Assembly: GCA_964022305.1 (NCBI GenBank)
Contig: CAXIBI010000001.1
Span: 4,208 to 68,207, forward strand
Direction: 5' to 3'
Origin: an uncultured Hyphomicrobiales bacterium
Lineage (GTDB): Bacteria; Pseudomonadota; Alphaproteobacteria; Rhizobiales; HXMU1428-3
Length of the DNA stretch: 64,000 bases
The notes beneath the pieces are model-generated. The model saw only the letters and a list, made by a program, of their open reading frames with translations, made no database searches and was not told where the DNA came from. Positions 2,117 to 49,574 of this stretch are shown piece after piece. A program made the position numbers and the translations under genes. The stretch's first letter is position 1, and each line of letters opens with the position of its first letter.

Positions 2117-2352
2117 ACAAGCTATCGGACTAAGCTATTTTAAGCGCTTTGATGCTTGTGAAGCTTAATGATGCGGAATAGCAAATTTTAAGAAACCGCG
2201 TTTTGCAAGGACTAATCTTAAGCCTTCTCTTAAGCCCTTAAACACATTCAGTTTAAGGACCTCGAGGCTGATTATGTATCTTCACTCTGGTTAGTTAAGA
2301 AAAGACCAGTTTATAAAATGCGGTTTGTTTAAGGAATATGAAGGCAGAGGAA

Positions 2353-4287
2353 ATGTCGAAAGTTATCGGAATTGATTTAGGGACCACAAACAGCTGTGTA
2401 TCTGTTATGGATGGTTCTGCTCCAAAAGTAATTGAAAATGCTGAAGGCGTTCGCACTACGCCATCAATGGTCGCGTTTACCGATGATGATGAGCGTCTGG
2501 TTGGTTTGCCGGCAAAGCGTCAAGCTGTAACCAATCCAGAAAATACGTTATTTGCAATTAAACGTCTTATTGGTCGCCGTTTTGATGACCCTACTGTGAA
2601 AAAGGACCAAAAGCTGGTTCCTTACAATATCATCAAGGCAGATAATGGCGATGCCTGGGTTGAAGCACAGGGCAAACAATATTCACCGTCTCAAGTTTCT
2701 GCGTTTATCTTGCAAAAAATGAAAGAAACGGCTGAGAGTTATCTTGGTTCAGATGTGACACAAGCTGTGATTACTGTTCCAGCTTATTTTAATGATGCAC
2801 AACGTCAAGCAACAAAAGATGCGGGTAAAATTGCTGGTCTTGAAGTTCTGCGGATTATCAATGAGCCAACTGCAGCGGCTCTTGCTTATGGCCTTGATCG
2901 CAATGAAGGCGCAACCATCGCCGTTTATGACCTTGGTGGTGGTACATTTGACGTTTCTATCCTTGAAATTGGCGATGGCGTTTTTGAAGTAAAATCTACC
3001 AATGGTGATACATTCCTAGGTGGTGAAGACTTTGACATGCGTCTTGTTGATTATCTCGCTGATGAGTTCAAGAAAGAAAACTCAATTGACCTGCGTAGCG
3101 ATAAGCTTGCTCTTCAACGCCTGAAAGAAGCGGCTGAAAAAGCAAAGATTGAACTTTCTTCAGCTACTCAAACAGAGATTAACCTGCCATTTATCACTGC
3201 AGATCAATCTGGCCCAAAACACCTCACCATGAAACTAACACGCTCTAAACTTGAGAGCTTGGTTGATGATTTGGTGAAACGTACAATTGCTCCTATGGAA
3301 AATGCTCTGAAAGATGCTGGCCTGAAAGCTGGCGATGTTGATGAGATTGTTCTTGTTGGTGGTATGACACGGATGCCGAAGATCACAGAGACTGTGAAAT
3401 CATTCTTTGGTAAAGAGCCTAACAAAGGCGTAAACCCTGATGAAGTGGTGGCTATGGGTGCTGCTATTCAGGGCGGTGTTCTACAAGGTGATGTTAAAGA
3501 CGTTCTTCTTCTCGACGTAACGCCGCTATCTCTTGGTATTGAAACTAAGGGTGGTCGTTTCACGCGCTTGATTGATCGTAATACTACTATCCCTACTAAG
3601 AAGAGCCAAATTTTCTCAACTGCTGAAGATAACCAGGATGCTGTGACAATCCGGGTGTTCCAAGGTGAGCGTGAAATGGCTATGGATAATAAATTGCTTG
3701 GCCAATTTAACCTGGTTGGTATTCCACCTGCACCAAGTGGCATGCCTCAAATTGAAGTGACTTTTGATATTGATGCCAACGGCCTTGTAAATGTTGCCGC
3801 GCAAGATAAAGCAACAGGCAAAGAGCACTCAATTCGCATTCAAGCCTCTGGCGGACTTTCAGATGATGATATTGAGCAAATGGTGAAAGATGCTGAGTCT
3901 CATGCTGAAGAAGATCGCAAACGCGCTGAACTTGTTGACGCAAGAAACCAAGCTGAAGCTCGCATTCACTCAACTGAGAAGAGCTTAGAAGAGTTTGCTG
4001 ACAAAGTTGGTGAAGAAGATAAAGAAACCATCGGCATTGCTTTGGAAGAATTGAAAGCGGCTGTTGAGGGTGAAGATATTGATGCGATTAATGCAAAATC
4101 TGAAGCCTTAGCACAAGCTGCTATGAAGCTTGGTGAAGCTATGTATAAAGATGCAAACCCTGAAGAGGGTGAGGCGTCTGATGACAGCTATGATCCAAGT
4201 GCTGATCAGCCTCAAGATGATGATATCGTCGACGCTGATTTTGAAGAAGTAAAAGATGATGATAACGAAGATAAAAAATCTGCTTAA
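2353..4287 (+). CDS. dnaK: Molecular chaperone DnaK (Hsp70)
   Basis: [18 protein letters not shown] and [11 protein letters not shown] motifs, plus an acidic C-terminus. The start is placed at ATG 2353 (MSKVIG...), behind an AGAGGAA Shine-Dalgarno. The track ORF begins 15 nt earlier, at 2338. Confidence 0.97.
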
Positions 4288-4305
4288 GTGATTTTATTCT
4301 TTCTT

Positions 4306-4340
4306 GTTCCGCCGGAATTTTCCGGCGGAACTATTTTATT
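4306..4340 (+). terminator. Hairpin/attenuator between dnaK and dnaJ
   Basis: Stem gttccgccgga / tccggcggaac (4306-4316 / 4321-4331), followed by a T-rich tract tattttattt. Confidence 0.55.
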
Positions 4341-4476
4341 TCTTTATACATATTGTTTAAATAATAGAGACACTATCTCATCTCGACCTTTGGCTGCATT
4401 TCAGGTAAAACCTCACCGTCAAAATTAATAAAACCTGAGATGGACAGATAAAAAAATTTAGTAGAGGCAAAGCTAA

Positions 4477-5634
4477 ATGGCAAAGCGTGATTATTATGAA
4501 GTCTTAGGTGTTGACCGCGATGCCGATGAAAAGCAGTTAAAATCAGCTTTTAGAAAGCTTGCTAAAGAACTCCATCCTGACCGCAATCCAGGTGATGAAG
4601 AAGCTGAAATTAAATTTAAAGAAGTTAATGAAGCTTATGAAATCTTAAAAGACCCTCAAAAACGCGCTGCCTACAATCAACTTGGCCATGCAGCTTTTGA
4701 TGGTGGTGGCTATGGTCCCGGCGGTGGTGCCGGTTTTGACAGCGACTTTGGCGCCTCTATGTCTGATATTTTTGATGATTTATTTGGCGACTTTATGGGA
4801 GGTGCTGGCGGTGGCGCACGGCGCCAAAAAACACGCAGTGGTCAAGAGCGCGGTGCTGACTTGCGCTATAATATGGAAATTTCCCTCAAAGACGCTTTTA
4901 ATGGAAAAACTGCTGAAATTACTGTTCCAAGTTCTGTTACCTGTGAGACATGTGATGGCTCTGGTGCAAAAAAAGGAACAACACCGAGTGTATGTTCGTC
5001 TTGCGGAGGACTTGGTAAAGTTCGTGCAAGCCAAGGCTTTTTCACAATAGAGCGCACTTGTCCTGCTTGTCATGGCAGAGGGGAAATTATTGCTGACCCT
5101 TGCTCTGATTGCTCTGGTTCTGGTCGCATAACCAAAGAACGCATCTTAAGCGTGAATATCCCAGCTGGTGTTGAAGATGGCACACGCATTCGCCTTGCTG
5201 GCGAAGGTGAAGCCGGCCTTCGCGGCGGTCCCTCTGGAGATCTCTATATCTTCCTTACGATCGAGCCTCATGAAATCTTTAGCCGCGATGGGGCTGACAT
5301 TTTTTGCAAAGTACCGATTTCAATGATCACCGCAGCGCTTGGTGGACAGATTGATGTTCCAACCGTCAATGGTGAACGCACTCGTATGAAAATTCCTGAA
5401 GGTACTTCAACGGCTAAACAATTCCGCCTCAAAGGTAAGGGTATGCCGGTGCTTCGCTCAAAAGCGTCTGGGGATATGTATGTTCAGGTTGAGGTGGAAA
5501 CACCTAAAAATCTATCACGGCGCCAGAAAGACCTTTTAAAGGACTTTGAAAAAGCCTCAAGCGAAGATACGAACCCTGAATCAACCAGCTTCTTTGCTCA
5601 GGTTAAAGATTTTTTTGATAAATCTTCGGATTAA
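4477..5634 (+). CDS. dnaJ: Co-chaperone DnaJ
   Basis: J domain with an HPD motif (LHPDRNPG), a G/F-rich linker, and four CxxCxGxG zinc-finger repeats ([32 protein letters not shown]). Confidence 0.97.
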
Positions 5635-5644
5635 GAGTCTGTTT

Positions 5645-5755
5645 TCTCTCACGGCTATTCCTCGCTCCGCTCGGGCCTCCGAGAGGCGGCGCTAAGCGCC
5701 GGGCAGCTCGCGCTGCCATGTCCCATTGCCCGAAAAGGGCAATGCTCCTTCTTCA
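5645..5755 (+). repeat. Modular intergenic repeat, copy A (directly 3' of dnaJ)
   Basis: Left box TCTCTCACGGCTATT, central GGCGCTAAGCGCC hairpin, GCCATGTCC, hairpin cattgccc-gaaaa-gggcaatg, right box CTCCTTCTTC. The same layout recurs at 12419, 16311, 24350, 24606, 49345 and 54875. Confidence 0.85.
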
Positions 5756-5785
5756 TGCAGCAAGATTTTCACTTATATCTTTTTA

Positions 5786-7847: not shown

Positions 7848-8038
7848 GGTGATGGCAATGTTACTCAACTTGCAAGAGAACTAAAACCTTTCTTCGTTTG
7901 ATAGCTCAGCCTTGTGCCAAAATCAGTTATGTTGACTTCACATTTTAAAAAAGAGCATAATCAAATTATGCCTCATATAATGAGAGCAGGGTCTTGAGCG
8001 TATCTATCTACTAATCAATAGTTTAGAGAGAAGTAAAT

Positions 8039-8446
8039 ATGAACGAAGAAAGAAATTATAAATTAATTGGAAGCATAACAACGATCCTGGGCCTTGTCGT
8101 GTTTTTCACTAGCTTATGGATTCGCAGTGTAGCGGCAAGCTCTCTTAATATCAATCATACATCTACTCATTCAATATTGTTTATTTTCCTATGCCTCATC
8201 ATATCTATTATTTGCTTTTTTATTGGCAAAAAATATGGAGATGTAATTTACAACACTGTAGCTGGTGGAGCTATTGTTCTTGCAATTTTGTTAGTTATTG
8301 CAGTTCGTATGATGGAAGGTGGTTTATTAAGCTCTACTCCTGATCTGATAATAATTGGACTCATGTTCTGTGGGGTTGTTGCAGTGGCATCTGGTCTAGC
8401 TGCTTTTGGGATTGTTAGCCATCAAAACGCAAATAAAATTGACTAA
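8039..8446 (+). CDS. Small hypothetical membrane protein (about 4 TM)
   Basis: 135-aa ORF with four hydrophobic helices, AGAGAAG upstream, and an AT-rich context. No recognisable family. Confidence 0.5.
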   Translation: MNEERNYKLIGSITTILGLVVFFTSLWIRSVAASSLNINHTSTHSILFIFLCLIISIICFFIGKKYGDVIYNTVAGGAIVLAILLVIAVRMMEGGLLSSTPDLIIIGLMFCGVVAVASGLAAFGIVSHQNANKID

Positions 8447-8557
8447 TAATCAATGTAACAACATATAGTAATATTTAGCTAAATGCATCTCTGATGAAAA
8501 AGGTTTGTTGCGGATCACAAGCAGAACAATAGCTTATCAAAATTTATTTTCTGAAAA

Positions 8558-9538
8558 CTATCTCTTTCTATACCATGGCAGTGGGTAATAATATATGAGT
8601 ATAGCAAGAGCAGCCAAAAGGCCTGTTGTATTGGCAACAGGGCCTTCCCAGCCTGATAACGCAGTTGCCCGTCCGGCGAATGTTGTTGTGCCTTTATAAA
8701 CCAACGTCCCACCTGATGTCTGAAGACCTGCCCCACTTTCCGATATACTATAAATTATCAATGCGATGATACTGAGAGAGACAAGCTGATATATTCCAAA
8801 TGAATGTATATATTTCGCTGAACGCTTCCATATAAAATAATGGAACCCCACAAATATGGATGCCATAAATGCTCCAAGTGTCAGACCGCGAAAAAGAACA
8901 TGAAGAACGATCCATTCATAGAAATAATCCCTCCATGGCTTTCCAGACATGAACTCATCACCCATCATTTTCATCAGGTAAAGCCAAACAATAAAACAAA
9001 TTGCAATCGCAATAATCTGAAAAACGCTCTTTTGCGAAAGATCTGAACCAATGTAATGCTTATTCTCTGGTTGTTTATACCCAAGAGCTTTTAAACGTTT
9101 CACTGCGGATTTTTGTACGTCTGGTGTTATTTCTTCTATAGCAATTTGTTGAAGTACTTGCTCATCATCAATAGCTTTTATTGCTAGTTTTTGTACATCA
9201 GGATCAGAATCATACTGAGCGATTTTATTTAATTTCGCACTGTCCGCTTTAATCAGCTTTCTGCATTTTTTAATTCCTATCGACGCTGTCAATATAAGAA
9301 ACAGAACGGAAAGAATACTAAGGCCAATGAAAACAGCGTACTCGCCTTCTTTTCCGATGTCGAAAGGCTCGAAAAAAGAGGGCATGTCTTCCCCGTTCCA
9401 AAAGCTAATGGGAAGATAGATTATCCATGAAAGCCAGTAATTAATCGGTTGAAGGCTACTAATCCAATAGCATAGACCAAGGGTAACTAAAAAAACAATG
9501 GATGCTGTAAGCCTTCTTAATTCCGGATCTTCATCCAT
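8558..9538 (-). CDS. Hypothetical polytopic membrane protein with a short HEAT-like repeat loop
   Basis: 326-aa ORF with several TM helices. The central soluble loop has a repeated DPDVQKLAIKAI / TPDVQKSAVKRL motif (HEAT/PBS-lyase-like). Confidence 0.6.
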   Translation of the reverse strand: MDEDPELRRLTASIVFLVTLGLCYWISSLQPINYWLSWIIYLPISFWNGEDMPSFFEPFDIGKEGEYAVFIGLSILSVLFLILTASIGIKKCRKLIKADSAKLNKIAQYDSDPDVQKLAIKAIDDEQVLQQIAIEEITPDVQKSAVKRLKALGYKQPENKHYIGSDLSQKSVFQIIAIAICFIVWLYLMKMMGDEFMSGKPWRDYFYEWIVLHVLFRGLTLGAFMASIFVGFHYFIWKRSAKYIHSFGIYQLVSLSIIALIIYSISESGAGLQTSGGTLVYKGTTTFAGRATALSGWEGPVANTTGLLAALAILIYYYPLPWYRKR

Positions 9539-9621
9539 AGCTCCTCCGATATAGAATATATAACTTTCAAACTAATATAGTTTACAGCTCATATTAGACA
9601 AAACCATTCGCGTTTAGAATT

Positions 9622-9650
9622 GCGCTTCAGTTGCCCACGAAAAACCGCGC
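9622..9650 (+). repeat. Degenerate palindromic unit (PU)
   Basis: gcgcttcagttgcccacgaaaaaccgcgc is a diverged version of GCGCTTCAGGTTGCCCAC-NN-GCAACCGCGC. Confidence 0.5.
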
Positions 9651-9652
9651 AC

Positions 9653-12160
9653 TTACCCTTTATCAGTACCGTCTTTTTCTGAATTGTCGTTGGTTGTGTC
9701 TGCGATGATTTCTTTTAGGTTCTCGCTTACATCTTCAGTTTTGTTTTCGGCTAGGTCCTTGTGGGTTGTTTCTTCTTGCATAGCCTGCTCGTCAGATTGT
9801 GCAGGTACACTATTTTCATTTGCACCTTGCAAGCTCTGCTTGATTGTTTGCAGGCGTTGCCAGATAGAGTTTTTCTCTTCGCCGCCAGACTTTAATTGTT
9901 CATCACCACGGCCAACTAACGGGACTGAAGGTGTCGTGTCTTTATCATCTAAGCTTTGTTCTTGCTGATTATCTAATTCAGTGGTTTCAGTGGCATGCTT
10001 AAGATCCATGCCGAATGACTTCTTTTGTGGACCGCTTTTCATAAATGTCTTGCGGGCCTCACCTTTATTGATAATGGCGCCTTTTTGAGTTTGGCCAAAC
10101 TGGTTGAGATCAAAACCTTTTTGGATATTTTGTAATTTTTCTTCCGCATTGTTTTTCCGTGGGAGTGCTTTTGGTTTTTTAACAGCCGGTTTGTTAAACT
10201 GATCCCAAAGATAAACCTGGCGTGCCAGATTTTGATAGAAGGTTTCTTCAATATGATAGGCAGAAGGATTATGTCGATCGAGCTTGATGTTGTCGCCAGC
10301 AATGGTCAGCACTTTGTTCACATATTGCTTTTCTTCACTTCTTAGATTTTTCATATCGATGACAGCCAAATAGCCTTGTTCTGGCGAGGGGCCGCTGATG
10401 GATCTAAAGAATATTTTTTTCGTTCTTATATCTTCTGGTTCATGGCCATAAATCTCAGTTGACATACCCAGCCCATATTTCATGACATCTGCCTGGCTGC
10501 CTGTGTTTTCATAAGACGCTGTTTTCGCGCCAATTAAACCTGCAATAAAGACAAGACTATCAATGGCAATCGCAAGCCCTAAGGCGAGATAAGCTAACCA
10601 GTTGCCATCATCAAAAGCATTGAGTGTCACGACAAAGTTTTTGGCTTTATCATCGCGGTTCAGGTCAATGCGGCTTAAGATATTGCGAAATGAGTTTGCA
10701 TCTTTTTCTGGCAAGCCTGAGCCTTGAATACAGCGCTGGCCAAGTTTGAGCAGACTGTCGATTTTGGTTGAGCGACGGCCTTTGCCGATGGTGCATTTTT
10801 TAGCCTGAGATAATTGAGCGGCTTGCAGAGTGAAAATCCTCGCCGCAACAGTGGCTGTGGCAGCACCAGGCTCACAAGAGATAGATCTAATCTCAGTGGC
10901 GATTTTAGGCACCTCAGTTAGGGCGTTATGAAGATTGGTACAATTTTTTTGGATATTTAAAAAGGTTGCTTTGCTTGGCTCTTGCCCGAACTGATCCCTT
11001 GCCGCATCTAAACTATCTATGCTTGCAGTCGCCGATAAATCTTGTGTTATATTTTCTGACTGGCGTTTGGTTTGCGCTTCAATAAATTGTTTTGCGACAG
11101 AGGCTTTGCCTTCAATTTTAGCAACTTCACCGTTGATCAGCTCCAGCTCCTGGTTAAGCTTGGCGACTTTTTCATCTAACTGCTCGAGGCGCGTTGCGGC
11201 TAAATCTTTTTGTGTGTTGATCACATCGCGCTCTGCATTGATACGGCGCTCTTCTTTTTTTATCGCTCTGAATTTAGGGCCTTCGCCTTCTCTGCCAGTT
11301 GAGCCAATGCCTTTGGCTTCTTTAGCAGCTTCAGCTAGCTTTTGATCAAGCAAGCGTTGTTTTTCTCGTAATTGCTGACGCAATTGGTCAACTTCAGCGC
11401 TAAGGCCTGGTCGGTCTGCATTAAGGCGATTGATGCCTTGCTCAATTTTTAATTGCTGGGCTTTTAAGGCTGCCTTTTGTCCTTTGGCTTGAGCTAAAGT
11501 TTCTTGATGGCGCGCTATTTCAGCTTGTTCGCCGCGCAATTTATTTAACAGTTGTTGCTCAACCAACTCAGGCGCTGATCGTGCGATTTTACCCATTTTA
11601 TCGAGGCGGTCATTATAATCTTTCCACCCGGCTGAATTGAACAAACCATCAATTGCTTCAAATTTGCGTTGCTCTACTCGTTTTTTAAGGTCAGTTAAGA
11701 CACCGCTCACCTGATTTTGAGCTCTGATTTCACCAGCGCGTTGGCGTTCTTCTTCTGAGAAGATTGAACTGAACAAACTGTCAAAAGAAAAGAAAACTGA
11801 AATTGCCATCGCAAAAAAGAATATGGCCCAGATCATCCAGACTTTAAAAAATGAAAGCGGCCCCATTACAGCGTGAACAAGCAAGTTTCTTTGTTCACCG
11901 CCGTCTTTTTTATTTTTCGTCGGGACTAAAGTTTCACCTATCATCCATGCGCTAACAAGCATGATCCCTTGAACACCAAATGTGATGAGAAAACAAAGCA
12001 CAGGAGAGCGGGTGAAGTTTGTCATGCCTTCAAATGTCGTCCAGCCAGAGGCCAGTGAAAGCGCTAGGCTGGTTAGCCCCATGAGGAATAGCCGCTCATT
12101 CGTCAACGCTGTTCGCATCAAGCCACCAAAAACCATTGCTGGTGCGCGCAATAATGACAT
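9653..12160 (-). CDS. Orphan 835-aa polytopic membrane protein with a long coiled coil (third gene of the orphan trio)
   Basis: About 4 N-terminal TM helices (aa ~25-125). Heptad-rich, charged segment at aa ~135-385 (EIARHQETLAQAKGQKAALKAQQLKIEQ...). A further TM helix, WLAYLALGLAIAIDSLVFIAGLIGA (aa ~540). Acidic low-complexity tail. I spotted no Walker A or other catalytic motif. Confidence 0.75.
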   Translation of the reverse strand: MSLLRAPAMVFGGLMRTALTNERLFLMGLTSLALSLASGWTTFEGMTNFTRSPVLCFLITFGVQGIMLVSAWMIGETLVPTKNKKDGGEQRNLLVHAVMGPLSFFKVWMIWAIFFFAMAISVFFSFDSLFSSIFSEEERQRAGEIRAQNQVSGVLTDLKKRVEQRKFEAIDGLFNSAGWKDYNDRLDKMGKIARSAPELVEQQLLNKLRGEQAEIARHQETLAQAKGQKAALKAQQLKIEQGINRLNADRPGLSAEVDQLRQQLREKQRLLDQKLAEAAKEAKGIGSTGREGEGPKFRAIKKEERRINAERDVINTQKDLAATRLEQLDEKVAKLNQELELINGEVAKIEGKASVAKQFIEAQTKRQSENITQDLSATASIDSLDAARDQFGQEPSKATFLNIQKNCTNLHNALTEVPKIATEIRSISCEPGAATATVAARIFTLQAAQLSQAKKCTIGKGRRSTKIDSLLKLGQRCIQGSGLPEKDANSFRNILSRIDLNRDDKAKNFVVTLNAFDDGNWLAYLALGLAIAIDSLVFIAGLIGAKTASYENTGSQADVMKYGLGMSTEIYGHEPEDIRTKKIFFRSISGPSPEQGYLAVIDMKNLRSEEKQYVNKVLTIAGDNIKLDRHNPSAYHIEETFYQNLARQVYLWDQFNKPAVKKPKALPRKNNAEEKLQNIQKGFDLNQFGQTQKGAIINKGEARKTFMKSGPQKKSFGMDLKHATETTELDNQQEQSLDDKDTTPSVPLVGRGDEQLKSGGEEKNSIWQRLQTIKQSLQGANENSVPAQSDEQAMQEETTHKDLAENKTEDVSENLKEIIADTTNDNSEKDGTDKG

Positions 12161-12381
12161 TTAGATTAAACCCCCGCTTGGTACTAAAAATTTTGCAACT
12201 TACAATAATTTCACGATAAAAATCGTTTCACAATCACATCCATTTTTAAGCTCGGATGACTATAGCAGCTTTCATGGGCCTATTGAAATGAAAGCTCATC
12301 TTATCTAGCAGAAAATGAGGGCATTATCTTTACAGAAAAGGCAAGGGTATGACGTGAATGAAGATTATTCACTCTTTTTTA

Positions 12382-12534
12382 GTGCTCCTTCAGTTGCCCA
12401 CCAGCAACCGTCGCTTTATCTCTCACGGCTATTCTGCCGCTGAAGCGGCAGGCCTGCGAGGCGCGGCGCTAAGCGCCGGGCAGCTGGCGCTGCCATGTCC
12501 TACTGCCCTGAAAAAGGGCAGTACTCCTTCTTCG
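12382..12534 (+). repeat. PU plus modular intergenic repeat, copy B (between trio genes, antisense to them)
   Basis: gtgctccttcagttgcccaccagcaaccg is followed by TCTCTCACGGCTATT, hairpin ctgccgc-tgaa-gcggcag, GGCGCTAAGCGCC, GCCATGTCC, hairpin tactgccct-gaaaa-agggcagta and CTCCTTCTTCG. Confidence 0.85.
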
Positions 12535-12579
12535 TCTAGTCAGAATTTAAATCTATTCTCACCAACTATTTGAACTTAA

Positions 12580-15500
12580 CTAGAAAGTTGAACGTTTTAG
12601 GCCCGTGCTGACGCGGAAGGTTTTTTGGCCGATTGAGAGTTCAGTTTCTTCTGCTTTTAAGGTCTTGAGTGACCACTTTTGTTGCTCGGGCCCACTATCA
12701 CTGCCTTCATTTGCTTGCTGGCCCGGATGATCGTCAACTGGTAAATTAATCAGTGTTTGATAACAAAGATCGAGATAAGATTGCCATTCAGCCCCTGCTA
12801 TGGCCCATTGCTCGGTTGAAGCTCTGTCCAAATCATCTAGATAAGTTTGGCAATAAACGGCTCTTGGATCTTCGTTCAGTAAGCTTCCAAATCCAGGTAA
12901 AGTTTCAATGAGTTGAACTGATGAGCTTTGTCGTGGCAACAGGCCATTTGAGTTGGCTTGTTCAACGACGATAAGCTTGCCTTTTTCAGCTACTGAGATC
13001 ATGTCAGTTTCACCCTCTAGACTATCTGACAAGGGCACCAATATCAGGTTTGATGTTTGCTTGGTGTGTGGAGCTGTATCTTGATAGTGAAATAATTCAA
13101 GCGCGCCTAAAGAGGTTGCTGATTTGGCGGCTTTGTAATTTTTAGGCAGTGGTAATAAACGAAACTCCAAAGTTTTCGCCGTGCTTTCAAGTAATTTTTT
13201 CAAAGGACCAAAAAGACATGTCCCACCAGAAGCTGATAGCACTCTCTCAAATTTCTCATTTGTTTTTGGAAAGGCCTGCTCGATAGAGCGGGGCAGGAGC
13301 TCAGCAACAAAAGCTAAGTAAGTTGAGAGCGGTCCAACTTTTTGTGCCAACAGCTCACTATTTACTCTTAATTCGATGTGCCAGGTTTTTCCCTCATTAG
13401 AGCTGATACAAACCAGTTGCTCACCGCGCAATCCATGCCACAAACTTATAGGCTCGTCAGCTGGCTCAATTGAAGAAGGTAGGGTGAGAGGATAATCATC
13501 CTCTCTTTCAGACCTTCCTAAAACGATGTGCAAGTCGTTGCCTGCTTGGTCTTTTGCCGTCTCGGCTGCGTAAAGGGCGCGGCGTAAGTCATTTAAAAAT
13601 TGGTTTTGTCTATAGGCTGTTTCTGTCTCTTGGCTTTCAGCGTCTTTAATTTCTTCAGTTGAAGTTGGAAACTCTGACTGTTTGATAATCTGCGCCCCAG
13701 CGCTCAAGGCTGTTTCGATTGTCTGAGCTATTTCTTTTGACAATGCGAGCTCTAAAGCTCTCCCCCCGAAGGGTAGTTCAATTAAACCATGAACTTGCTC
13801 AAGAAGAGCATTGGTTTCCCCAACCCAGCCCGTTTGAGCGCAATATGCTGCATGGCTCGCGCCAATATCTATATGTATTTGCTGTACTTTTCTGGCTCTT
13901 GCAGGTTGATCCTGAATGGCCATGGTTTTTAGTGCATGATAACTCGACGCTAAGATTTCGTCGACCAAGAGCACATTATCTTTCGCTTGATCTGGCCCTT
14001 TAAGCCCGAGGAGTTCGGCCATGGGGCCCATTTCTAGAAAAGACCCTTGCTCAAATTTCGTGAGTGTATTGGCACCTGCTAATTGATAGCGCCTTTTAGC
14101 TGCTTGGCTTAGATTGCTTGAATGTGTGAGGGCTAGAACTGACCCTCTATTCACCTGGCTTGATTTTTGTTTTTGCTCACCTTCCGCAAGGGATGGTGTC
14201 AGGCTCAATTTGCTACCGAAATAATTATAGAGCTCATCTAAAACATCAGACATCAACCGCTCTGAATTTAAAGAGGCGGTTAAACCAGTTTTAAAATGCT
14301 CTGTCTCTAAAGGAGCTGTTTCTCCTTTTTGTGCAATCTCATTTGTTTTCACACGGGCCGCTGTTAGATATGTGGGCGGCGCTTTTTTTATTTCTTTTAA
14401 ATCTTTGGAATACAAGCCGTGAGACGCTGGTTCTTCTATATTATTTGTTTGTGAGAAAATTCGTTTTAAATTCTTCTTTTCTCCAGCTTGTTTTTTTCCT
14501 TTAGGTGGCAGGGCAATGTCATAGGTTCGCTGCATCGCTGTTAAACGTTCATCTAACGAGGATGTCTTCCAAGATGATTTACTGAATGAAACTTTTAAAG
14601 GGTTTGTTTTAAGAGGCCAATAGTCATCATCGAGTTCTGTTTCTTTTGGTTCAGTATCTAGGCGCCCAGAGAGAGACAATTTTGAAGGTATAAAGGCTTT
14701 ATCCAAATAGTGGTCAGGTGATATTTCTCCTAATGCAATATTTTGAAATTCTTTTTTCTCTTCAGTATTTTGTGTTTCCTTTGATTGGAAAGCGGCCATT
14801 GCCAGGGACTTGGAGCCGATATCAATTGAGATAAACTGAGAGTAAGTTTTCTCGACTTGTTTAATCGAGATTTTAAAATTTTCAGTTTTTTGTTTATCTG
14901 GCGAGAAACATTTGAGTTTAAACTCACCTTTTTGAGCTTTTTGTTTTTTATTGAGTGCGATCTGGTTGAGTAATATCAACTGATGCTGCTGAGAGCTTAA
15001 TTCTGTGACTTCTGGTTTTACATTATAAAATTCTGCATCTTTTGATGACGGCGTGATGGCAACGTTTACCGGTCCATCTGATAAACCAAGCCCATAATAT
15101 TGCAGTGAGAGAAACTGACTGGCAGGACATTCAATTTCTGGCCCCGTTACTAAAAGTTCACCAAAGATGTTGTCATCTGATTGCTCTGTTGTGTCTCTGT
15201 TTACAGGCAGACATAGTGGAGCTGACATTCCCGCGCCGTCTTGGAGTATCAACCAGTCATTCTCATCAAATTGAATTGAGAACTGACATTCAACCGAAAT
15301 ATTGCCGCCTGGTTCAGGAATGATGAGTTCTAACAGTGCATGCAATGGTTGGTTATTATTAGCGGCTCTGATTGAGGCCATCTCTAGCCATAAAGGATCA
15401 TTTATCGGCGCAGCAATGCTTAGGGTCCAAGGGCCTCGTTTTTCTTTCGGTGCAGATGGTAATAAGGGACCAAATGCTTTTGCTCCTTTAGGGAAATTTT

Positions 15501-16230
15501 TATTTTGCGCATGAGGGAACGCTTTATAAATTTCTTCATAAGCGTGTTCATCTTCAATGAATTCGCCAGGGAGTTCTGTTGAGCCCTCATAAATTCGCAA
15601 TTTTTCAATCAGGCTATTTCGCAATGGTTGCCAGGTATCTGATAGTTTGATTGTAGAGAGCAGCAAGCGTTTATCTGAGCGCGGATCTAAGGGCCCTAAA
15701 TTTGATTTGACCATTGCGCTTGCTATATCAATACGTCCTTGCGCCCCACATGCAATTGGGTAGAGTAAGTGCTGTTCTTTTGAAGGTTGGACAGGCTCGA
15801 GCCCTAGTAAACATTTTGCTTTGGGGCCATAATAAAGCTTTACCTCTAAATTCATCACTCCTTGATCTTCTCTGATGCAACTTTCATCGTTTTCATCAAG
15901 TTCAGTGATTTCAACTTCCAAGTAGAAAGTCTCTTTTAGAGAAAAGGTTTCTATTTGCTCTCTTAATAGCGCTTGGTTGGTATAAAGGCTTGCTTCATTT
16001 GCCTGGTTGTTATCATCTCTTGTGATTTCGCGCCCTGCAGCTGCATGCTGCGTGAACCAGGTCAGCAAATTTAAAGGGACTTTATATGGCTTTTCATTGC
16101 GAGCTGGACGCAATCTGATTTCTTGGATGCGCAAGGCTACGCTTCTTGCATGTTCAAAAGAAACAGAGGCCAGAAATTCATGCTCGCCAGGACTGGCTAG
16201 ATTAATATGCGCTGATCGTTTTTTTACCAT
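12580..16230 (-). CDS. Orphan 1216-aa protein with actin/Hsp70/FtsA-PilM-fold ATPase signatures (middle gene of the trio)
   Basis: Three motifs occur in the canonical order. Phosphate-1-like FISIDIGSKSLAMAAF (aa 465-481, nt 14806-14832). Phosphate-2-like IHIDIGASHAAY (aa 785-796, nt 13843-13878), followed by ELPFGGRALELAL. Adenosine-like VLSASGGTCLFGPL (aa 997-1010, nt 13201-13242). The ~460-aa N-terminal region has no recognisable motif. Confidence 0.75.
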   Translation of the reverse strand: MVKKRSAHINLASPGEHEFLASVSFEHARSVALRIQEIRLRPARNEKPYKVPLNLLTWFTQHAAAGREITRDDNNQANEASLYTNQALLREQIETFSLKETFYLEVEITELDENDESCIREDQGVMNLEVKLYYGPKAKCLLGLEPVQPSKEQHLLYPIACGAQGRIDIASAMVKSNLGPLDPRSDKRLLLSTIKLSDTWQPLRNSLIEKLRIYEGSTELPGEFIEDEHAYEEIYKAFPHAQNKNFPKGAKAFGPLLPSAPKEKRGPWTLSIAAPINDPLWLEMASIRAANNNQPLHALLELIIPEPGGNISVECQFSIQFDENDWLILQDGAGMSAPLCLPVNRDTTEQSDDNIFGELLVTGPEIECPASQFLSLQYYGLGLSDGPVNVAITPSSKDAEFYNVKPEVTELSSQQHQLILLNQIALNKKQKAQKGEFKLKCFSPDKQKTENFKISIKQVEKTYSQFISIDIGSKSLAMAAFQSKETQNTEEKKEFQNIALGEISPDHYLDKAFIPSKLSLSGRLDTEPKETELDDDYWPLKTNPLKVSFSKSSWKTSSLDERLTAMQRTYDIALPPKGKKQAGEKKNLKRIFSQTNNIEEPASHGLYSKDLKEIKKAPPTYLTAARVKTNEIAQKGETAPLETEHFKTGLTASLNSERLMSDVLDELYNYFGSKLSLTPSLAEGEQKQKSSQVNRGSVLALTHSSNLSQAAKRRYQLAGANTLTKFEQGSFLEMGPMAELLGLKGPDQAKDNVLLVDEILASSYHALKTMAIQDQPARARKVQQIHIDIGASHAAYCAQTGWVGETNALLEQVHGLIELPFGGRALELALSKEIAQTIETALSAGAQIIKQSEFPTSTEEIKDAESQETETAYRQNQFLNDLRRALYAAETAKDQAGNDLHIVLGRSEREDDYPLTLPSSIEPADEPISLWHGLRGEQLVCISSNEGKTWHIELRVNSELLAQKVGPLSTYLAFVAELLPRSIEQAFPKTNEKFERVLSASGGTCLFGPLKKLLESTAKTLEFRLLPLPKNYKAAKSATSLGALELFHYQDTAPHTKQTSNLILVPLSDSLEGETDMISVAEKGKLIVVEQANSNGLLPRQSSSVQLIETLPGFGSLLNEDPRAVYCQTYLDDLDRASTEQWAIAGAEWQSYLDLCYQTLINLPVDDHPGQQANEGSDSGPEQQKWSLKTLKAEETELSIGQKTFRVSTGLKRSTF

Positions 16231-16310
16231 AAGCCCTCAAATAATCGATATTTGAGGCAATATACAGACTTAAATTATGTTTATGGAAAGTTTTTTGTTG
16301 GGTTTTGTTT

Positions 16311-16430
16311 TCTCTCACGGCTATTTCTAGCGCTGAAGCGCTAGAGCCTACGAGGTGCGGCGTAACACGCCGGGCTACGCTAACGCTTCGCCATGTCCCT
16401 CAGTCCGAAGTGGACTGAGCTCCTTCTTCG
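16311..16430 (+). repeat. Modular intergenic repeat, copy C (between trio genes, antisense to them)
   Basis: TCTCTCACGGCTATT, hairpin ctagcgc-tgaa-gcgctag, ggcgt-aac-acgcc, GCCATGTCC, hairpin ctcagtcc-gaag-tggactgag, CTCCTTCTTCG. Confidence 0.85.
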
Positions 16431-16473
16431 TATTTCAATGTCAGTGTTAAGGGTGGTTATTTATTTCTTGGCC

Positions 16474-18423
16474 TTATCTTGAAAGAATCAGTCGGGCGTG
16501 TTGGGCGGAGGCGTGGAAGCGTTCTGCTGCATCCGAAAGAATCGTCATCATGCGAAGGCGGAGCATCATTTCATCTGTTAATGGCGCTTTCGCAGACTCT
16601 AATTCAAAATTAGCTTCTTCTTGAGAGGGAAGCGTTTTACCTAACCGTGTGACATGCTCTAGTACGACTTCTTTACGGCCTGTTCTTGCCAGATGATCTG
16701 TCATTGATTGAAGGATGGTAATCACTTGCTCTGCTGGTAAAAGTGAAGGATCTAATATGATCGCTTCAAAACTTTCAGCCAAAGCGCGGCTGTTAATAAG
16801 CGCATGGATCCATTGGTGAGAAACCACTGATGGCGGCAAAAGACGACGCGCCAAAGCTGCTGCATCCTGGATATATCCCTCTCCAGAAAGAGCAAAAATT
16901 GTAAAGCTGATATTTAAGCGCTGTGTAAAGGCCCAATCACCCGTCTCTAAAATACAAGCCACCATGTCAGAGACTTGCTCATACTCAGACAATGCTACGA
17001 GTTGCTCTGGTGTGAGATAAGAAAGATTTGAAACATATTGACGCAAACCATCAGCGGCACCTTCGATAATTCTTGAACGATATTCAAGGAATGGCTCTGA
17101 TGTTGGTAAGCGGCCTGCCAAACAAAGCAAATCTTCCATTTGGCTTAAGAACTGAATATCCCCGCTATCGAACTGCTCATCTCTAATGGCGCAGCCAAGG
17201 CTTAATGAGAGGTCAAAAATTTCTGATTTGAAATTTTCTTTAACTGTCTCTAGCAATTGCTCATAAATATGAGGGGCGCTGTCAAAATCTGAAAAGAGGG
17301 TGTAGAGCCCAGCTATATGAGGCGTTGTGTCATCACCTCGTAGCAATGCCTCAAGAGCTAAAAGACGTGGTTGATCTGTTGCGCTTTCTGGTAGAAGGGA
17401 TGAGGCTTCAACTCTCATATTGATGCCAATTTCGTTTAGAACCTGACCTAGAGAGGCGCTGGTTTCCCGCGCCAGACCACTTAATTCTTCAAACAGGCTA
17501 TCTTCTTCGAATAGTTCATCATTATCTTCAAAATCATCATATTCTGAGAGTTCGAGCTCTGGCGCGTAGATGTTTTTCAAACGACCTGCAAGCAATCCTC
17601 TTACTTCCTGGCAAGTGCTCTCTAAAGTCGCCCCTAATGGTAGGGCTGCCACAGGCTTGGTAAATGCTCCTTGTGAGATTTCACGATCATCAAAATATTG
17701 TAGTGTGCAAATTGGTTGGCGATGCTGAAAACCATATGAAAAAGAAACAGTGTGACGAAGAGCTGATGGAAGTAATTTAAATACGTAGGCAAGTGAAGCT
17801 AGAAATTCTTGCGTTGAGCTAAAGCTTTCTTTGCCGAATTGACCTGGATAACCAGAGGCAAGAGCCCCTAAAATTAGCCCCACACCTAACGGCAATTCAG
17901 CTAAGCTTAGATCTTCAGTCTGGTTTGGCTCTAACTTGGCTGTGTTTACAACTTTGCAACCACTTAAACCTGGCTCAAGATATTTTTCAGTTTCAAAAGG
18001 GGCTTTTGAGAGATTTAAAATTAGCTCAGGAGCATGGCGCTCCCAAAGACGCGCATTAATGACAAAACTTGAGGCGAACAAGTTCTCTTGCTTAATTTTC
18101 GCGGATGTATCACCAATGATTTTTACTTGGCTTGCTGCGACCCAGTTATGATTTGGATTAGCATTTGGCTCATAAAAGGGACGAGTGGCTCTTACGCATA
18201 AACCACCGTTTTCTCTCGCATTTTTTGATAATAGTGAGCCTACATCATGCGCTCCGACCATGCCATCAAGTTCACAAAGTGGACGTGCATCATCTGGAAA
18301 ACCATTACTTACATTTTGGCAAGCCATTGTTTGATCTGGGTGTGGGTTCTTTGTTTCTTGGCAAAGAAGGGTCCCAATTGAGAAAACATGAGCGTCGACA
18401 CTTGTTGGAAATTGAAGCAGCAT
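16474..18423 (-). CDS. Orphan 649-aa soluble protein (first gene of the trio)
   Basis: Long uninterrupted ORF on the same strand as its neighbours. Acidic linker ELELSEYDDFEDNDELFEEDSLFEEL around aa 290-320, and a helical-looking C-terminal half. No TM segment, P-loop or family motif recognised. Confidence 0.7.
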   Translation of the reverse strand: MLLQFPTSVDAHVFSIGTLLCQETKNPHPDQTMACQNVSNGFPDDARPLCELDGMVGAHDVGSLLSKNARENGGLCVRATRPFYEPNANPNHNWVAASQVKIIGDTSAKIKQENLFASSFVINARLWERHAPELILNLSKAPFETEKYLEPGLSGCKVVNTAKLEPNQTEDLSLAELPLGVGLILGALASGYPGQFGKESFSSTQEFLASLAYVFKLLPSALRHTVSFSYGFQHRQPICTLQYFDDREISQGAFTKPVAALPLGATLESTCQEVRGLLAGRLKNIYAPELELSEYDDFEDNDELFEEDSLFEELSGLARETSASLGQVLNEIGINMRVEASSLLPESATDQPRLLALEALLRGDDTTPHIAGLYTLFSDFDSAPHIYEQLLETVKENFKSEIFDLSLSLGCAIRDEQFDSGDIQFLSQMEDLLCLAGRLPTSEPFLEYRSRIIEGAADGLRQYVSNLSYLTPEQLVALSEYEQVSDMVACILETGDWAFTQRLNISFTIFALSGEGYIQDAAALARRLLPPSVVSHQWIHALINSRALAESFEAIILDPSLLPAEQVITILQSMTDHLARTGRKEVVLEHVTRLGKTLPSQEEANFELESAKAPLTDEMMLRLRMMTILSDAAERFHASAQHARLILSR

Positions 18424-18562
18424 AATACTATCCGAAACTATATAAAACCAATCTCAACATTGCCTGCCCGATGTTAATATGGAGTTACCAAGTTTGTAAG
18501 ATAGCTAAAATTATTCAAAAATTTTGTTTTATATTTCGTCTTATTTTAAAGGTTTTTTAAGC

Positions 18563-19990
18563 CTATGTTTTTGCCAACTGTTTCGCGCTTATGGTTTTTG
18601 GCTTGAATAATTTCTTTTCGATGTAACCAATAATCTCTTGGGCTAAATCTTTTTCATTAACTTGTTGTATACCTTTAAGACCAGGTGAAGAATTCACCTC
18701 TAATAACAAAGGCCCTTTGTTTGAGCGCAAGATATCAACGCCAGCAAGGCTAAGACCAAAAGCTTTGGCGGCTTTCACGGCCATCTGGCGCTCTTCTTTG
18801 GTGATTTTCACTTTTTCAGCAGAACCCCCTTGATGAATATTGGCACGAAACTCACCAGGCTCAGCTGAGCGCTGCATTGTTGCAATCACTTTAGACCCCA
18901 GAACCAAGCATCTGATGTCAGACCCTTCAGATTCGCCAATAAATTCTTGGACGAGAAAATCCGCATCAATTCCTCTAAAGGCATCAATCACCGACTCAGC
19001 TGCTTTTTTTGTCTCGGCTAAAACCACACCCTTGCCTTGTGAGCTTTTTAATAATTTCACCACCAAAGGCGCACCATTGACCAGTTTGATTAAATCTTCT
19101 GTGTTTTTAGGTGAGCTTGCAAAAGCTGTGATTGGCATTGGCAAACCATGGCGCGCCATAACCTGATGCGCTAATAACTTATCTCGTGATCGATAAATGG
19201 AATCAGCTGAATTTAAACAAAGAGCACCTGTCATATCAAATTGGCGTACGATTGAGGTACCATAGGATGTGATTGGAGCGCCAATTCTTGGAATGATGGC
19301 GTCAAACCTTGGCAATTGCTTGCCATTATAATGAAGCCCAGCTGTGAGCGAGTTAATGTTCATGTAGCACGATGTGGTCTCAATTGGCTCTATGACATGG
19401 TCATTTTTTTCAGCCGCCTCAATGATTTGCTTATTTGAATAATTGCCAGGATCCATTGTGAGGAGACCGATGCGCAATGACCGTGCAACAGGACTTTGTG
19501 ATTTTACCTTTTTATATATAGAGAATGAAAGCTCATCTAATAAATATTCAGCGCTTGGCTCAACAACCAGTTGTGCAGTGTCCATAGCTTCACGGCCTAT
19601 GAGCATGCGATGCTGCAAATTTTCTCTGTTTGTTAGTGAAACTTCAATCGGCCAACTATTATCACCGATTGCCAGATCCGTTTTGATTATGGTTCTGAAT
19701 TCACTTTCACCATTTGAGCTTGTGATATAACGGCGATCAATAATGGGGGCCGTGCAGTAGATGATGAGCTCTTCATTGCCATCTATGGGTTTAACGCCAA
19801 AACGTACTTTGGGTCTCTCTATTGGCCCAAATGTTTCAATATCTATAGCATGTAATGCAGATGTTTTAGCCCCTGTATCTATTTTGGCATGTATGGCTTC
19901 TAAGCCTAATTTGGGTAATCTTACCCATTCGCGCCAACCAACAGAAATAGATGATAGGGGGGAAAGATCTGGTGTATTTTCCATATCCAT
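18563..19990 (-). CDS. rimK: Fusion of a retropepsin-like (RimB/DUF785-type) domain and a RimK-family ATP-grasp alpha-L-glutamate ligase
   Basis: N-terminus: WREWVRLPKLGL..IHAKIDTGAKTSALHA (a DTGA aspartic-protease-like motif). C-terminus matches the RimK core: FRANIHQGGSAEKV...AGVDILRSNKGPLLLEVNSSPGLKGI. Confidence 0.85.
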   Translation of the reverse strand: MDMENTPDLSPLSSISVGWREWVRLPKLGLEAIHAKIDTGAKTSALHAIDIETFGPIERPKVRFGVKPIDGNEELIIYCTAPIIDRRYITSSNGESEFRTIIKTDLAIGDNSWPIEVSLTNRENLQHRMLIGREAMDTAQLVVEPSAEYLLDELSFSIYKKVKSQSPVARSLRIGLLTMDPGNYSNKQIIEAAEKNDHVIEPIETTSCYMNINSLTAGLHYNGKQLPRFDAIIPRIGAPITSYGTSIVRQFDMTGALCLNSADSIYRSRDKLLAHQVMARHGLPMPITAFASSPKNTEDLIKLVNGAPLVVKLLKSSQGKGVVLAETKKAAESVIDAFRGIDADFLVQEFIGESEGSDIRCLVLGSKVIATMQRSAEPGEFRANIHQGGSAEKVKITKEERQMAVKAAKAFGLSLAGVDILRSNKGPLLLEVNSSPGLKGIQQVNEKDLAQEIIGYIEKKLFKPKTISAKQLAKT

Positions 19991-20026
19991 CTAGAGCCTA
20001 TAAATGAAAAAATTATGTATCAGGAA

Positions 20027-20554
20027 TTAATCGCTTTTACTTGTGCATCTATCAAATGCAGATTCATATTCCCATACTTCATTTTCTGTTTTGCAGGCAA
20101 GTATAACTGTTTTGAAGTCAGGGTCACTTTCAAGATAGTGCAAAATTTCTTGCATGGCGATAAAAGCGGCTCTTTGCGGGGGAAATCCTTTTTCGCCTGT
20201 TGAAATCGTTGGGAAGGCAATGTTTGAAATTTTGAATGTTTTGCCGATTTCAAAGCAATTTTTATAACAATGCCTTAGGTAGATATCTTCATCAGCCTCA
20301 CCGCCGCCCCAGGCTGGACCAGCTGTATGGATGACAAAATTGGCCGCTAAATCATAGCCTCTTGTTATGCGGGCTTCACCAACTGGACAGGGAGCAACGT
20401 GTTTGCACTCTTCAGCTAATTTTGGCCCTGCGAGTGCATGGAGAGTTTCTTCCTCAGTGGTTGCGGCTAAGAGGGAGGGATGCGCGCTATTGACAATCGC
20501 ATCACACTTCAGGCTTGTGATGTCGATTTCTCTTATTTCTATTCTAGATGGCAT
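20027..20554 (-). CDS. Macro domain protein (YmdB/MacroD-like) with a degenerate catalytic loop 1
   Basis: CDAIVNSAHPSLL, IHTAGPAWGGG and IAFPTISTGEKGFP match the macro fold. The usual NAAN...GGGGVDGAIH is replaced by NSAH...AATTEEETLH. Confidence 0.8.
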   Translation of the reverse strand: MPSRIEIREIDITSLKCDAIVNSAHPSLLAATTEEETLHALAGPKLAEECKHVAPCPVGEARITRGYDLAANFVIHTAGPAWGGGEADEDIYLRHCYKNCFEIGKTFKISNIAFPTISTGEKGFPPQRAAFIAMQEILHYLESDPDFKTVILACKTENEVWEYESAFDRCTSKSD

Positions 20555-24349: not shown

Positions 24350-24465
24350 TCTCTCACGGCTATTCCATGAGCTGAAGCACATGGGCCTCCGAGGGGCGGC
24401 GCAACGCGCCGGGCTTCACTCTCGTTTCGCCATGTCCTGACGCCGAAATGGCGTCACTCCTTCTA
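24350..24465 (+). repeat. Modular intergenic repeat, copy D (directly 3' of ispG)
   Basis: TCTCTCACGGCTATT, hairpin ccatgagc-tgaa-gcacatgg, ggcgc-aac-gcgcc, GCCATGTCC, hairpin tgacgcc-gaaa-tggcgtca, CTCCTTCT. Confidence 0.85.
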
Positions 24466-24605: not shown

Positions 24606-24783
24606 TCTCTCACGGCTATTTCAAACGCTATCGCGTTTGAGCCTGCGAGGGCGCGGTGCTAAGCACCGGACGCCATTGGCGTCATGTCCTTCAGCCCAAA
24701 GAAGGGCTGAACTCCTTCTTCATACAGTTCCTTTTGCGTTACTCCATGTCCTACTGCTTGAGAGAAGCAGTGCTCCTTCTTCG
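24606..24783 (+). repeat. Modular intergenic repeat, copy E (with a duplicated 3' module)
   Basis: TCTCTCACGGCTATT, hairpin caaacgc-tatc-gcgtttg, ggtgc-taa-gcacc, CATGTCC, hairpin ttcagccc-aaagaa-gggctgaa, CTCCTTCTTC. A second CCATGTCC, hairpin (tactgcttgagagaagcagtg) and CTCCTTCTTCG follow. Confidence 0.85.
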
Positions 24784-49344: not shown

Positions 49345-49534
49345 TCTCTCACGGCTATTCGATGAGCTGAAGCTCATCGGCCTGCGAGGGCGCGGCGCTA
49401 AGCGCCGGGCTTCATTTCTTTTGCGCTTCAGGTTGCCCACCTGCAACCACGCTGGCGTTTCGCCATGTCCTACTGCCCTAATCCGGTTGCTTGTGGGCAA
49501 CTGAAGGACAAAAAAGGGCTGAGCTCCTTCTTCG
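49345..49534 (+). repeat. Modular intergenic repeat, copy F, with two nested inverted palindromic units
   Basis: It begins 3 nt after the asd stop. TCTCTCACGGCTATT, hairpin cgatgagc-tgaa-gctcatcg, GGCGCTAAGCGCC, inserted gcgcttcaggttgcccacctgcaacc, GCCATGTCC, an inverted PU ggttgcttgtgggcaactgaagg inside the last hairpin, then CTCCTTCTTCG. Confidence 0.85.
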
Positions 49535-49574
49535 TACCGTACGTCCTAAGTTTTTTCCTTTTACAATTCCAATG

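Follow-up and report, generated by a model that had tools for sequence, protein, structure and literature searches.

The analysed window, a stretch of 64,000 nucleotides on contig CAXIBI010000001.1 of an uncultured Hyphomicrobiales bacterium (assembly GCA_964022305.1), encodes a protein of 1216 amino acids (aa), here called B, which contains an enlarged nucleotide-binding domain (NBD) homologous to the NBDs of Hsp70 proteins and belongs to a rare, unnamed family outside all curated families. The gene is inherited together with two neighbours, A upstream and C downstream. It is probable that B is a non-canonical Hsp70 superfamily protein of the cytoplasm, composed of an array of immunoglobulin (Ig)-like domains, the enlarged NBD, a linker-like segment and a C-terminal domain, and that it acts as a nucleotide switch with the partners A and C at the membrane. 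Hsp70 is one of the best-studied ATPase folds, and nevertheless this family of proteins of about 1200 residues is absent from Pfam, NCBIfam and PADLOC. New here are a rare Hsp70-type family, its novel domain architecture and its conserved partner set.

Domain architecture of B

In the original prediction, made from the letters of the sequence, B had been described as a 1216 aa protein with actin/Hsp70-fold motifs and large insertions. The open reading frame (ORF) was recovered unchanged on the minus strand with an ATG start, and a re-verification of the coordinates placed all four motifs exactly where they had been reported. The features of B are listed below, with residue numbers of B and, for DnaK, of the Escherichia coli protein.

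12580..16230, minus strand: gene B, encoding a giant Hsp70-like protein of 1216 aa (ORF list, ATG start)
14845..16230, minus strand: about four predicted tandem Ig-like beta-sandwich domains, residues 1-462 (AlphaFold2 model, Foldseek)
13075..14844, minus strand: Hsp70-type NBD, residues 463-1052, ~590 aa compared with ~385 aa in DnaK (Foldseek, hhalign, BLAST chain)
Residues 466-481, minus strand: phosphate-1 motif FISIDIGSKSLAMAAF with D470 (position check)
14800..14829, minus strand: phosphate-1 loop SIDIGSKSLA, D470 corresponding to DnaK D8 (D470, G472 and S473 invariant; aligned to DnaK IDLGTTNS)
14464..14466, minus strand: K589 in NLKRIF, counterpart of the catalytic Lys70 of DnaK in AIKRLIG (hhalign; at least 90% conserved in the superfamily)
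13957..13959, minus strand: E758 in LLVDEILASSY, counterpart of the catalytic Glu171 of DnaK (hhalign; at least 90% conserved in the superfamily)
13843..13878, minus strand: phosphate-2 loop IHIDIGASHAAY, residues 785-796, D788 corresponding to DnaK D194 (family and superfamily alignments)
13741..13779, minus strand: ELPFGGRALELAL, residues 818-830, counterpart of the Hsp70 LGGEDFD segment (G822 invariant, G823 at least 90% conserved; hhalign alignments)
13201..13242, minus strand: adenosine motif VLSASGGTCLFGPL, residues 997-1010 (S999, G1002 and G1003 invariant in the family; aligned to Hsp70 by hhalign)
12583..13074, minus strand: linker-like segment and alpha/beta C-terminal domain, residues 1053-1216 (model secondary structure, Foldseek)

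The distances from D470 to D788 and from D788 to G1002 amount to 318 and 214 residues (~320 and ~210 had been given), compared with 185 and 143 in the DnaK encoded in the window (~190 and ~145). This DnaK could be used as the proposed in-window reference for motifs and spacing, but its ORF extends from 2338 to 4287 and the start assumed at 2353 is an internal Met.

The core is an Hsp70-type nucleotide-binding domain

The fold of residues ~460-1050 had been named as the point to be checked. With an alignment of 18 sequences as input, AlphaFold2 modelled residues 440-1216 at a predicted template modelling score (pTM) of 0.76 and with high confidence from residue ~700 onward; the model has the two-lobed fold of the Hsp70/Hsp110 NBD (DnaK, Hsc70, BiP, Sse1). 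In a Foldseek search of this model against the PDB, the top 50 matches were exclusively Hsp70/Hsp110/DnaK structures (E-values of 2e-11 to 2.5e-8, probability 1.00), including Sse1/Hsp110, DnaK, Hsc70, BiP, Ssb and Ssz1, and no actin-like chain was found among them. Relative to NBD-only PDB targets the TM-score of the model is ~0.6. Against predicted viral structures, the top 17 matches were all Hsp70 homologues (best E-value 9e-11), and the first actin-related protein followed at rank 20 with an E-value of 0.04.

The homology was also detected at the sequence level. With hhalign, the profile of the superfamily core was aligned to the NBD of the window DnaK with 95.5% probability (E-value 1.4e-8, 377 columns, DnaK residues 1-390). 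This significance was reached only with the 39-sequence profile; when the profile of the close family was aligned to the single DnaK sequence, the probability was 1.4%, although the alignment was collinear nonetheless. A chain of BLAST matches leads in the same direction, from B to the distant member L004_B (1.5e-6) and from L004_B to the window DnaK (3.8e-5).

In the hhalign alignment, D470, K589 (NLKR), E758 and D788 are paired with D8, K70, E171 and D194 of DnaK. The NLKR motif is aligned to AIKR, LALTHSSNLSQAAKRRYQLAG to the VITVP..DAG element and the DExxA region around E758 to NEPTA, and further downstream LPFGG is paired with FLGGEDFD, SASGG with LVGGMTR and AKSATSLGALE with the terminal AxGAA helix. 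B is thus collinear with the Hsp70/Hsp110 NBD in phosphate-1, Lys70, 'VITVP..DAG', Glu171 'NEPTAAA', phosphate-2, 'LGGEDFD', the adenosine 'GG' and the terminal 'AxGAA'. Together with the Foldseek results, the counterparts of K70 and E171 sharpen the earlier assignment: the fold is of the Hsp70 type and not merely an actin fold.

The predicted large subdomain insertions were found as well. Compared with DnaK, B carries about 200 extra residues in the NBD, mainly in the IB (501-694) and IIB (844-994) regions, and an additional insertion of ~25 residues lies ahead of the strand equivalent to that of Glu171. The IB region 501-694 is the least conserved part of B with 32% mean pairwise identity. 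An Hsp70 nucleotide-binding core therefore tolerates ~200 inserted residues and a new setting, in which Ig-like domains precede it and its fixed partners are not chaperones.

Conservation of the motif residues

A search of 5.8 billion proteins yielded 19 homologues of B, of which 18 are full-length, with identities of 35-98%; where the source gives a label, they are listed as 'hypothetical protein' of Hyphomicrobiales. One carrier of the family, the strain NBRC 116602 (protein P0002), is cultured. In the alignment of this family D470, G472, S473, G790, G822, S999, G1002 and G1003 are invariant, as are G1042 and A1043 of the terminal AxGAA helix, and D788 is kept in all but one of the homologues, the sole replacement being Glu. 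For the superfamily, 39 sequences with a mean column identity of 20% were aligned. Five columns are invariant throughout, D470 and G472 among them, and conservation reaches 90% or more at K589, E758, D788, G790, G822, G823 and G1002. Conservation among homologues had been proposed as a check on the motifs; since the motif residues form the conserved columns in such diverged proteins, the motifs are more than chance resemblances and mark constrained positions.

The phosphate-2 loop of the clade to which the window protein belongs reads DIGASHAAY, in which the counterparts of Thr199 and Asp201 are replaced by His793 and Ala795. The distant relatives of B retain the canonical DIGAGT(F/Y)D. In P0021, a full-length family member of 1248 aa, D788, G790 and the GG of the adenosine motif are lost (LALAEE, ATLADRL), which suggests an inactivated paralogue or orthologue.

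N-terminal Ig-like array and C-terminal domain

For the N-terminal ~460 aa, left unassigned in the original prediction, an AlphaFold2 model of residues 1-465 was obtained with a mean predicted local distance difference test score (pLDDT) of 82.3. The model is nearly all beta and consists of about four beta-sandwich domains. Foldseek matched it to proteins with tandem Ig-like/ASH-type domains at E-values down to 4e-13, among them ciliary central-apparatus proteins, the CfaB and Saf pilins, integrin legs and cadherins. By this model the N-terminal part is an array of Ig-like domains. Along B, divergence is highest in the IB insertion and in Ig4 and lowest in Ig1 (residues 1-135; 15826-16230), whose 64% mean pairwise identity is the highest within B, compared with 50% in the NBD core. 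Within Ig1, residues 55-71 form an invariant block LLTW-T..AGRE..R, a candidate interaction or active surface.

As in Hsp70/Hsp110, the NBD is followed by a hydrophobic segment and a further domain. The segment SNLILVPLS (residues 1060-1068; PNLILVPLS in the family consensus) stands after the last NBD helix and recalls the Hsp70 interdomain linker. The C-terminal domain is conserved and located where the linker and the substrate-binding domain (SBD) of Hsp70 would be; in the model it is mixed alpha/beta, compared with the beta-sandwich and helical lid of the Hsp70 SBD. The Foldseek alignments end at the end of the NBD (~590 columns) for NBD-only targets, whereas with targets that have a C-terminal domain they continue over the whole remaining query (~780 columns) and the E-values improve. 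The alignment with the closterovirus Hsp70h likewise extends through the C-terminal domain, and hhalign of this domain against DnaK gave no SBD signal; for these two reasons, the model makes equivalence to the Hsp70 SBD a possibility only.

No transmembrane segment was predicted in B by hydropathy, and the N-terminus (MVKKRSAHINLASPGEHEF...) shows no hydrophobic leader by eye, no signal-peptide predictor having been run. Because of the missing leader, B is taken as cytoplasmic.

Distribution of the B family

The proteins A, B and C were compared with Pfam, NCBIfam, PADLOC and PHROGs without any significant match, and searches of B against PDB sequences, both with the single sequence and with a profile, gave no match either. 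The closest approach is Pfam HSP70 (PF00012), which is matched below threshold by 19 of the 39 superfamily members (best E-value 0.0017; in the scan that printed scores, a superfamily relative reached 14.7 bits against a cut-off of 20.6) and not by the window protein. Other weak Pfam matches in the superfamily are to FtsA (four members), MreB (one) and SrfB (one).

When 1.84 billion representatives were searched exhaustively with a profile, only ~8 clusters of the close family were recovered, together with ~35 distant relatives of 1100-1300 aa in which the core was matched at equivalent positions. When one genome per species was scanned for 185,579 species, the family was found in 12 genomes, all of them metagenome-assembled genomes of Hyphomicrobiales labelled Methyloligella, Rhodomicrobium, Hyphomicrobiaceae or plain Hyphomicrobiales. 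A scan of viral contigs gave no relatives of B. In a metagenome scan two true relatives were detected, the remaining matches being ordinary actinobacterial Hsp70-family proteins that share the phosphate-2 motif only. Word-indexed homologue searches with the superfamily alignment and with the distant member P0035 as queries added no new proteins. As the family is this rare (12 species genomes and ~35 distant clusters among the 1.84 billion representatives), the immediate impact of the finding is a specialist one.

Partner genes and conserved locus

B is flanked by two genes that accompany it throughout the family.

16474..18423, minus strand: gene A, 649 aa partner, directly upstream of B (synteny in 12 genomes)
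9653..12160, minus strand: gene C, 835 aa membrane protein, DUF4407-like, downstream of B (hydropathy, synteny)

For A, no family or solved relative could be detected in Pfam, NCBIfam and the PDB, including a profile search of the PDB. Residues ~278-315 of A (17478-17591) form a strongly acidic, Phe-rich stretch, ELSEYDDFEDNDELFEEDSLFEELSG, which is kept in the family consensus and separates a better-conserved N-terminal part from a helical-looking C-terminal half. According to its hydropathy, C has N-terminal transmembrane helices, a long coiled coil (~190-360), a further transmembrane segment at 520-548 and an acidic tail. The window C reached 22.3 bits against DUF4407 (PF14362; cut-off 31.3), and its homologue in the distant locus L018 (E-value 1.3e-16 to C) lies above the cut-off with 33.3 bits. 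Judged by term counts, DUF4407 is named in the searched literature in passing only.

Across the 12 genomes, all loci of sufficient length have the order A-B-C. The conserved neighbourhood consists of a macro-domain gene, a rimK-like gene, A (649 aa), B, C (~835 aa), pyrF, a flavodoxin-like gene, dnaJ and dnaK. As the same order was found wherever the contig is long enough, the A-B-C module is vertically inherited at a core-genome site. Throughout the related loci (L001-L017), B has diverged further than any other gene of the neighbourhood, with 36-67% identity compared with 68-88% for A, 62-85% for C and ~90% for DnaK. In L011, for example, the identities are 82% for RimK, 69% for A, 39% for B, 68% for C, 83% for DnaJ and 91% for DnaK, and in L010 they are 86% for A, 67% for B and 83% for C.

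Clusters of the distant relatives

Distant relatives of B occur also outside the Hyphomicrobiales, e.g., in Neomegalonema sp. Directly upstream of B relatives, A-like genes were found in the loci L004, L005 and L019, which are related to each other (E-values of 1e-5 to 8e-26) and show weak, collinear similarity to the window A. On a JGI contig with the relative P0040, a gene that fits A by its size occupies this upstream position.

An extended, conserved cluster of six or seven genes, headed by the B relative, is present in L004 (10001-23543) and L018 (10001-23438), comprising B, genes for proteins of ~340-400 aa, ~505-517 aa, ~965 aa and ~1065-1085 aa, and a DUF4407-type gene. The gene sizes on the P0040 contig fit this cluster, and L020 and L021 (1-11482), on contigs that are shorter or truncated, contain its first part, reaching the ~1075 aa gene in L021. 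The ~965 aa protein carries a genuine penicillin-binding protein (PBP) transpeptidase domain (62.9 bits), and the last gene of the L018 cluster, a DUF4407-type membrane coiled-coil protein, is the homologue of the window C described above. None of the extended-cluster proteins matches PADLOC.

Proposed function of B

B is most likely a nucleotide-driven switch in a membrane-associated module of three proteins. The fold, the homology, the conserved residues, the architecture and the joint inheritance of the three genes are shown by the data above, whereas the binding and hydrolysis of ATP by B, its allostery, its physical contacts with A and C and the role in the cell are what we infer. ATP would lie in the cleft that separates the two lobes, held there by three loops, phosphate-1 (D470-I-G-S), phosphate-2 (D788-I-G) and adenosine (S999..G1002-G1003). 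K589 and E758 would occupy the positions of the catalytic Lys70 and Glu171 of Hsp70. Because the clade has lost the counterparts of Thr199 and Asp201, hydrolysis would probably be slow or stimulated by a partner. By analogy with Hsp70/Hsp110, B may act as a nucleotide-controlled switch or clamp, in which the closure of the lobes would be passed on to the linker-like segment and the C-terminal domain, as in these proteins. The Ig-like array, and domain 1 especially, may bind A, C or a target. B would work with its fixed partners, A (649 aa, upstream) and the DUF4407-like coiled-coil protein C (downstream), and since C is a membrane protein, the machine would be placed on the inner side of the cytoplasmic membrane.

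Several findings weigh against this proposal. The window B itself has no sequence match in Pfam, NCBIfam, PADLOC or the PDB, and the IB-region part of its model (486-694) is of low confidence. The Thr199 and Asp201 counterparts are missing throughout the window clade, and P0021 lacks several motif residues, so that ATPase activity of B is not guaranteed; from the residues retained, nucleotide binding is likely and efficient hydrolysis uncertain. No DnaJ or GrpE family match, and hence no J-domain/GrpE-like partner, was found by Pfam and NCBIfam in A, C or a neighbouring protein of 326 aa. Co-transcription of the three genes is made less evident by the long gaps of 243 bp between A and B and of 419 bp between B and C, which hold a repeat element.

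Among the other explanations, it is conceivable, though unlikely, that B is the sensor or switch of an unrecognised conflict system of the anti-phage or abortive-infection type, with C as its effector and with the Hyphomicrobiales clade carrying a chromosomally fixed minimal A-B-C version. The Ig-like array or the C-terminal domain would then recognise a component of the invader, and the Hsp70-like core would turn recognition into a conformational change. Some distant relatives do lie in suggestive contexts, with a phage-type integrase immediately upstream in L018, a CHAT protease in L004 and TIR_2, toxin-antitoxin and STK-WD40 genes in L019, but the number of contexts seen is small, and each comes from a metagenomic singleton. 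Around the phosphate-2 region, PDC-M61B, a PADLOC model for a candidate defence protein, is weakly matched by 13 of the 39 superfamily members (best E-value 1.8e-5) and not by the window DnaK; however, the window B itself gave no match, and the model covers 588 positions compared with ~1200 aa in the B family. In the literature, PDC-M61 was found named in one paper on phage host range. No other gene nearby evolves nearly as fast as B (36-67% identity compared with 62-88% for A and C), and Hsp70-like NBD/SBD units are known from CoCoNuT defence systems (PMC11090510). On the other hand, the module of the window clade is strictly vertical, at one chromosomal site between the rimK-like gene and pyrF/dnaJ/dnaK with no mobile-element genes, its proteins match no known defence protein in PADLOC, and no relatives were found on viral contigs. 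The wider proposal that A-B-C and the extended relatives together form an undescribed, membrane-acting conflict/immunity system, sensing through the fast-evolving Ig-like and insertion regions of B, is held with equally low confidence.

The module could also serve a cell biology specific to Hyphomicrobiales, e.g., envelope or membrane organisation in budding or prostheca growth, with B as a membrane-recruited, Hsp70-like remodelling factor; this, too, we regard as rather improbable. It would agree with the restriction of the family to 12 Hyphomicrobiales genomes among the 185,579 species, with the fixed core-genome location, with the good conservation of A and C and with the PBP transpeptidase-domain protein in the extended clusters elsewhere. 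However, neither experiments nor annotations connect the module with morphology, the distant relatives extend to other taxa and to island-like contexts, and a divergence as fast as that of B is unusual in a housekeeping factor.

That B is an inactive pseudo-ATPase, in which the Hsp70 fold is kept only as a scaffold or nucleotide sensor, appears doubtful as well. The phosphate-2 loop reads DIGASH instead of DxGGGTxD, the Thr199 and Asp201 counterparts are lost in the whole close family and kept in distant relatives, P0021 has lost motif residues, and the Hsp70-like domains of the CoCoNuT protein CnuD are also predicted poor hydrolysers (PMC11090510). Against this stands the strong constraint on D470, K589, E758, D788 and the GG motif in proteins that are otherwise only 35% identical.

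A filament-forming, actin-like B of the MreB/ParM/FtsA/PilM type is very improbable: the motifs are common to the whole actin/Hsp70 group and a few relatives match FtsA (4/39) or MreB (1/39) weakly, but all of the leading PDB and viral Foldseek matches belong to the Hsp70 family, and the Hsp70-specific Lys70 and IB/IIB elements can be aligned. Similarly, there is hardly any case for A-B-C as a diverged SrfABC-type toxin operon, in which SrfB is a ~1000 aa middle component (SrfA 51 kDa, SrfB 114 kDa, SrfC 102 kDa; PMC6950479): the three-gene order and the order of sizes are alike (A/B/C = 649/1216/835 aa) and one of the 39 relatives matches Pfam SrfB (PF07520) at an E-value of 0.22, but A, B and C gave no match to a Srf-named family in Pfam or NCBIfam at E-values up to 1, the dominant weak match is HSP70 and not SrfB, and no relationship of the partner genes emerged from these searches. 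SrfABC membership, considered because of operon size and order, was rejected for this lack of any Srf profile match.

Should the module turn out to act in defence or as an envelope machine specific to this lineage, it would provide a first functional handle on DUF4407 and add to the few known Hsp70-like switches outside protein folding.

Comparison with other Hsp70-like proteins

Despite the shared core, B differs clearly from the Hsp70/Hsp110 proteins. It is only ~10% identical to them and remains under every curated family threshold, it has ~200 extra IB/IIB residues and ~460 aa of predicted N-terminal Ig-like domains, and the window clade lacks the Thr199/Asp201 counterparts. Whereas canonical Hsp70 has a J-domain/GrpE partner, none was detected in A and C, and B has instead the fixed partners A and the DUF4407-like C.

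Hsp110 and Ssz1 are non-chaperone Hsp70-like units and poor hydrolysers. Together with CnuD they are the closest functional precedents of B. CnuD belongs to the CoCoNuT type IV restriction systems, in which Hsp70-like NBD/SBD units with predicted poor hydrolysis were described (PMC11090510). Like B, it is a highly diverged, non-chaperone Hsp70-like unit of a multi-gene system with degenerate catalytic motifs and coiled-coil partners; unlike CnuD, B carries an Ig-like array. Neither McrB/McrC (CnuB/CnuC, DUF2357) nor HEPN or cold-shock-domain families were found in A, B and C by Pfam, NCBIfam and PADLOC, and no McrB-like GTPase or McrC was found in the 326 aa neighbour or among the precomputed Pfam labels of the genes in the related loci.

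Further features of the locus

The dnaK-dnaJ pair (2338-5634) is located within ~4-8 kb of the module (9653-18423), here and in all related loci that extend to it. The dnaJ gene, ~4 kb away from the module, is the housekeeping partner of dnaK.

Between C and pyrF, the window contains a gene for a multi-pass membrane protein of 326 aa (8558-9538, minus strand). By tblastn, no counterpart could be found in any related locus, and in L001 and L003 C abuts pyrF; the gene looks like a lineage-specific insertion.

An Rfam scan of 8000-20500 gave no match. A dispersed intergenic repeat of ~115 nt, present in both the A-B and the B-C gap, was found at 5645-5756, 12419-12535, 16311-16431, 24606-24723 and ~49345-49535, all copies being in minus orientation, and additional matches to its end motifs lie at 24350, 43829 and 55018. 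The repeat begins with ACGAAGAAGGAG, continues with three or four GC-rich hairpins and ends with ATAGCCGTGAGAGA. Each of the end motifs occurs 8-9 times compared with 0.25 expected occurrences, and the hairpin stems vary between the copies through compensatory changes.

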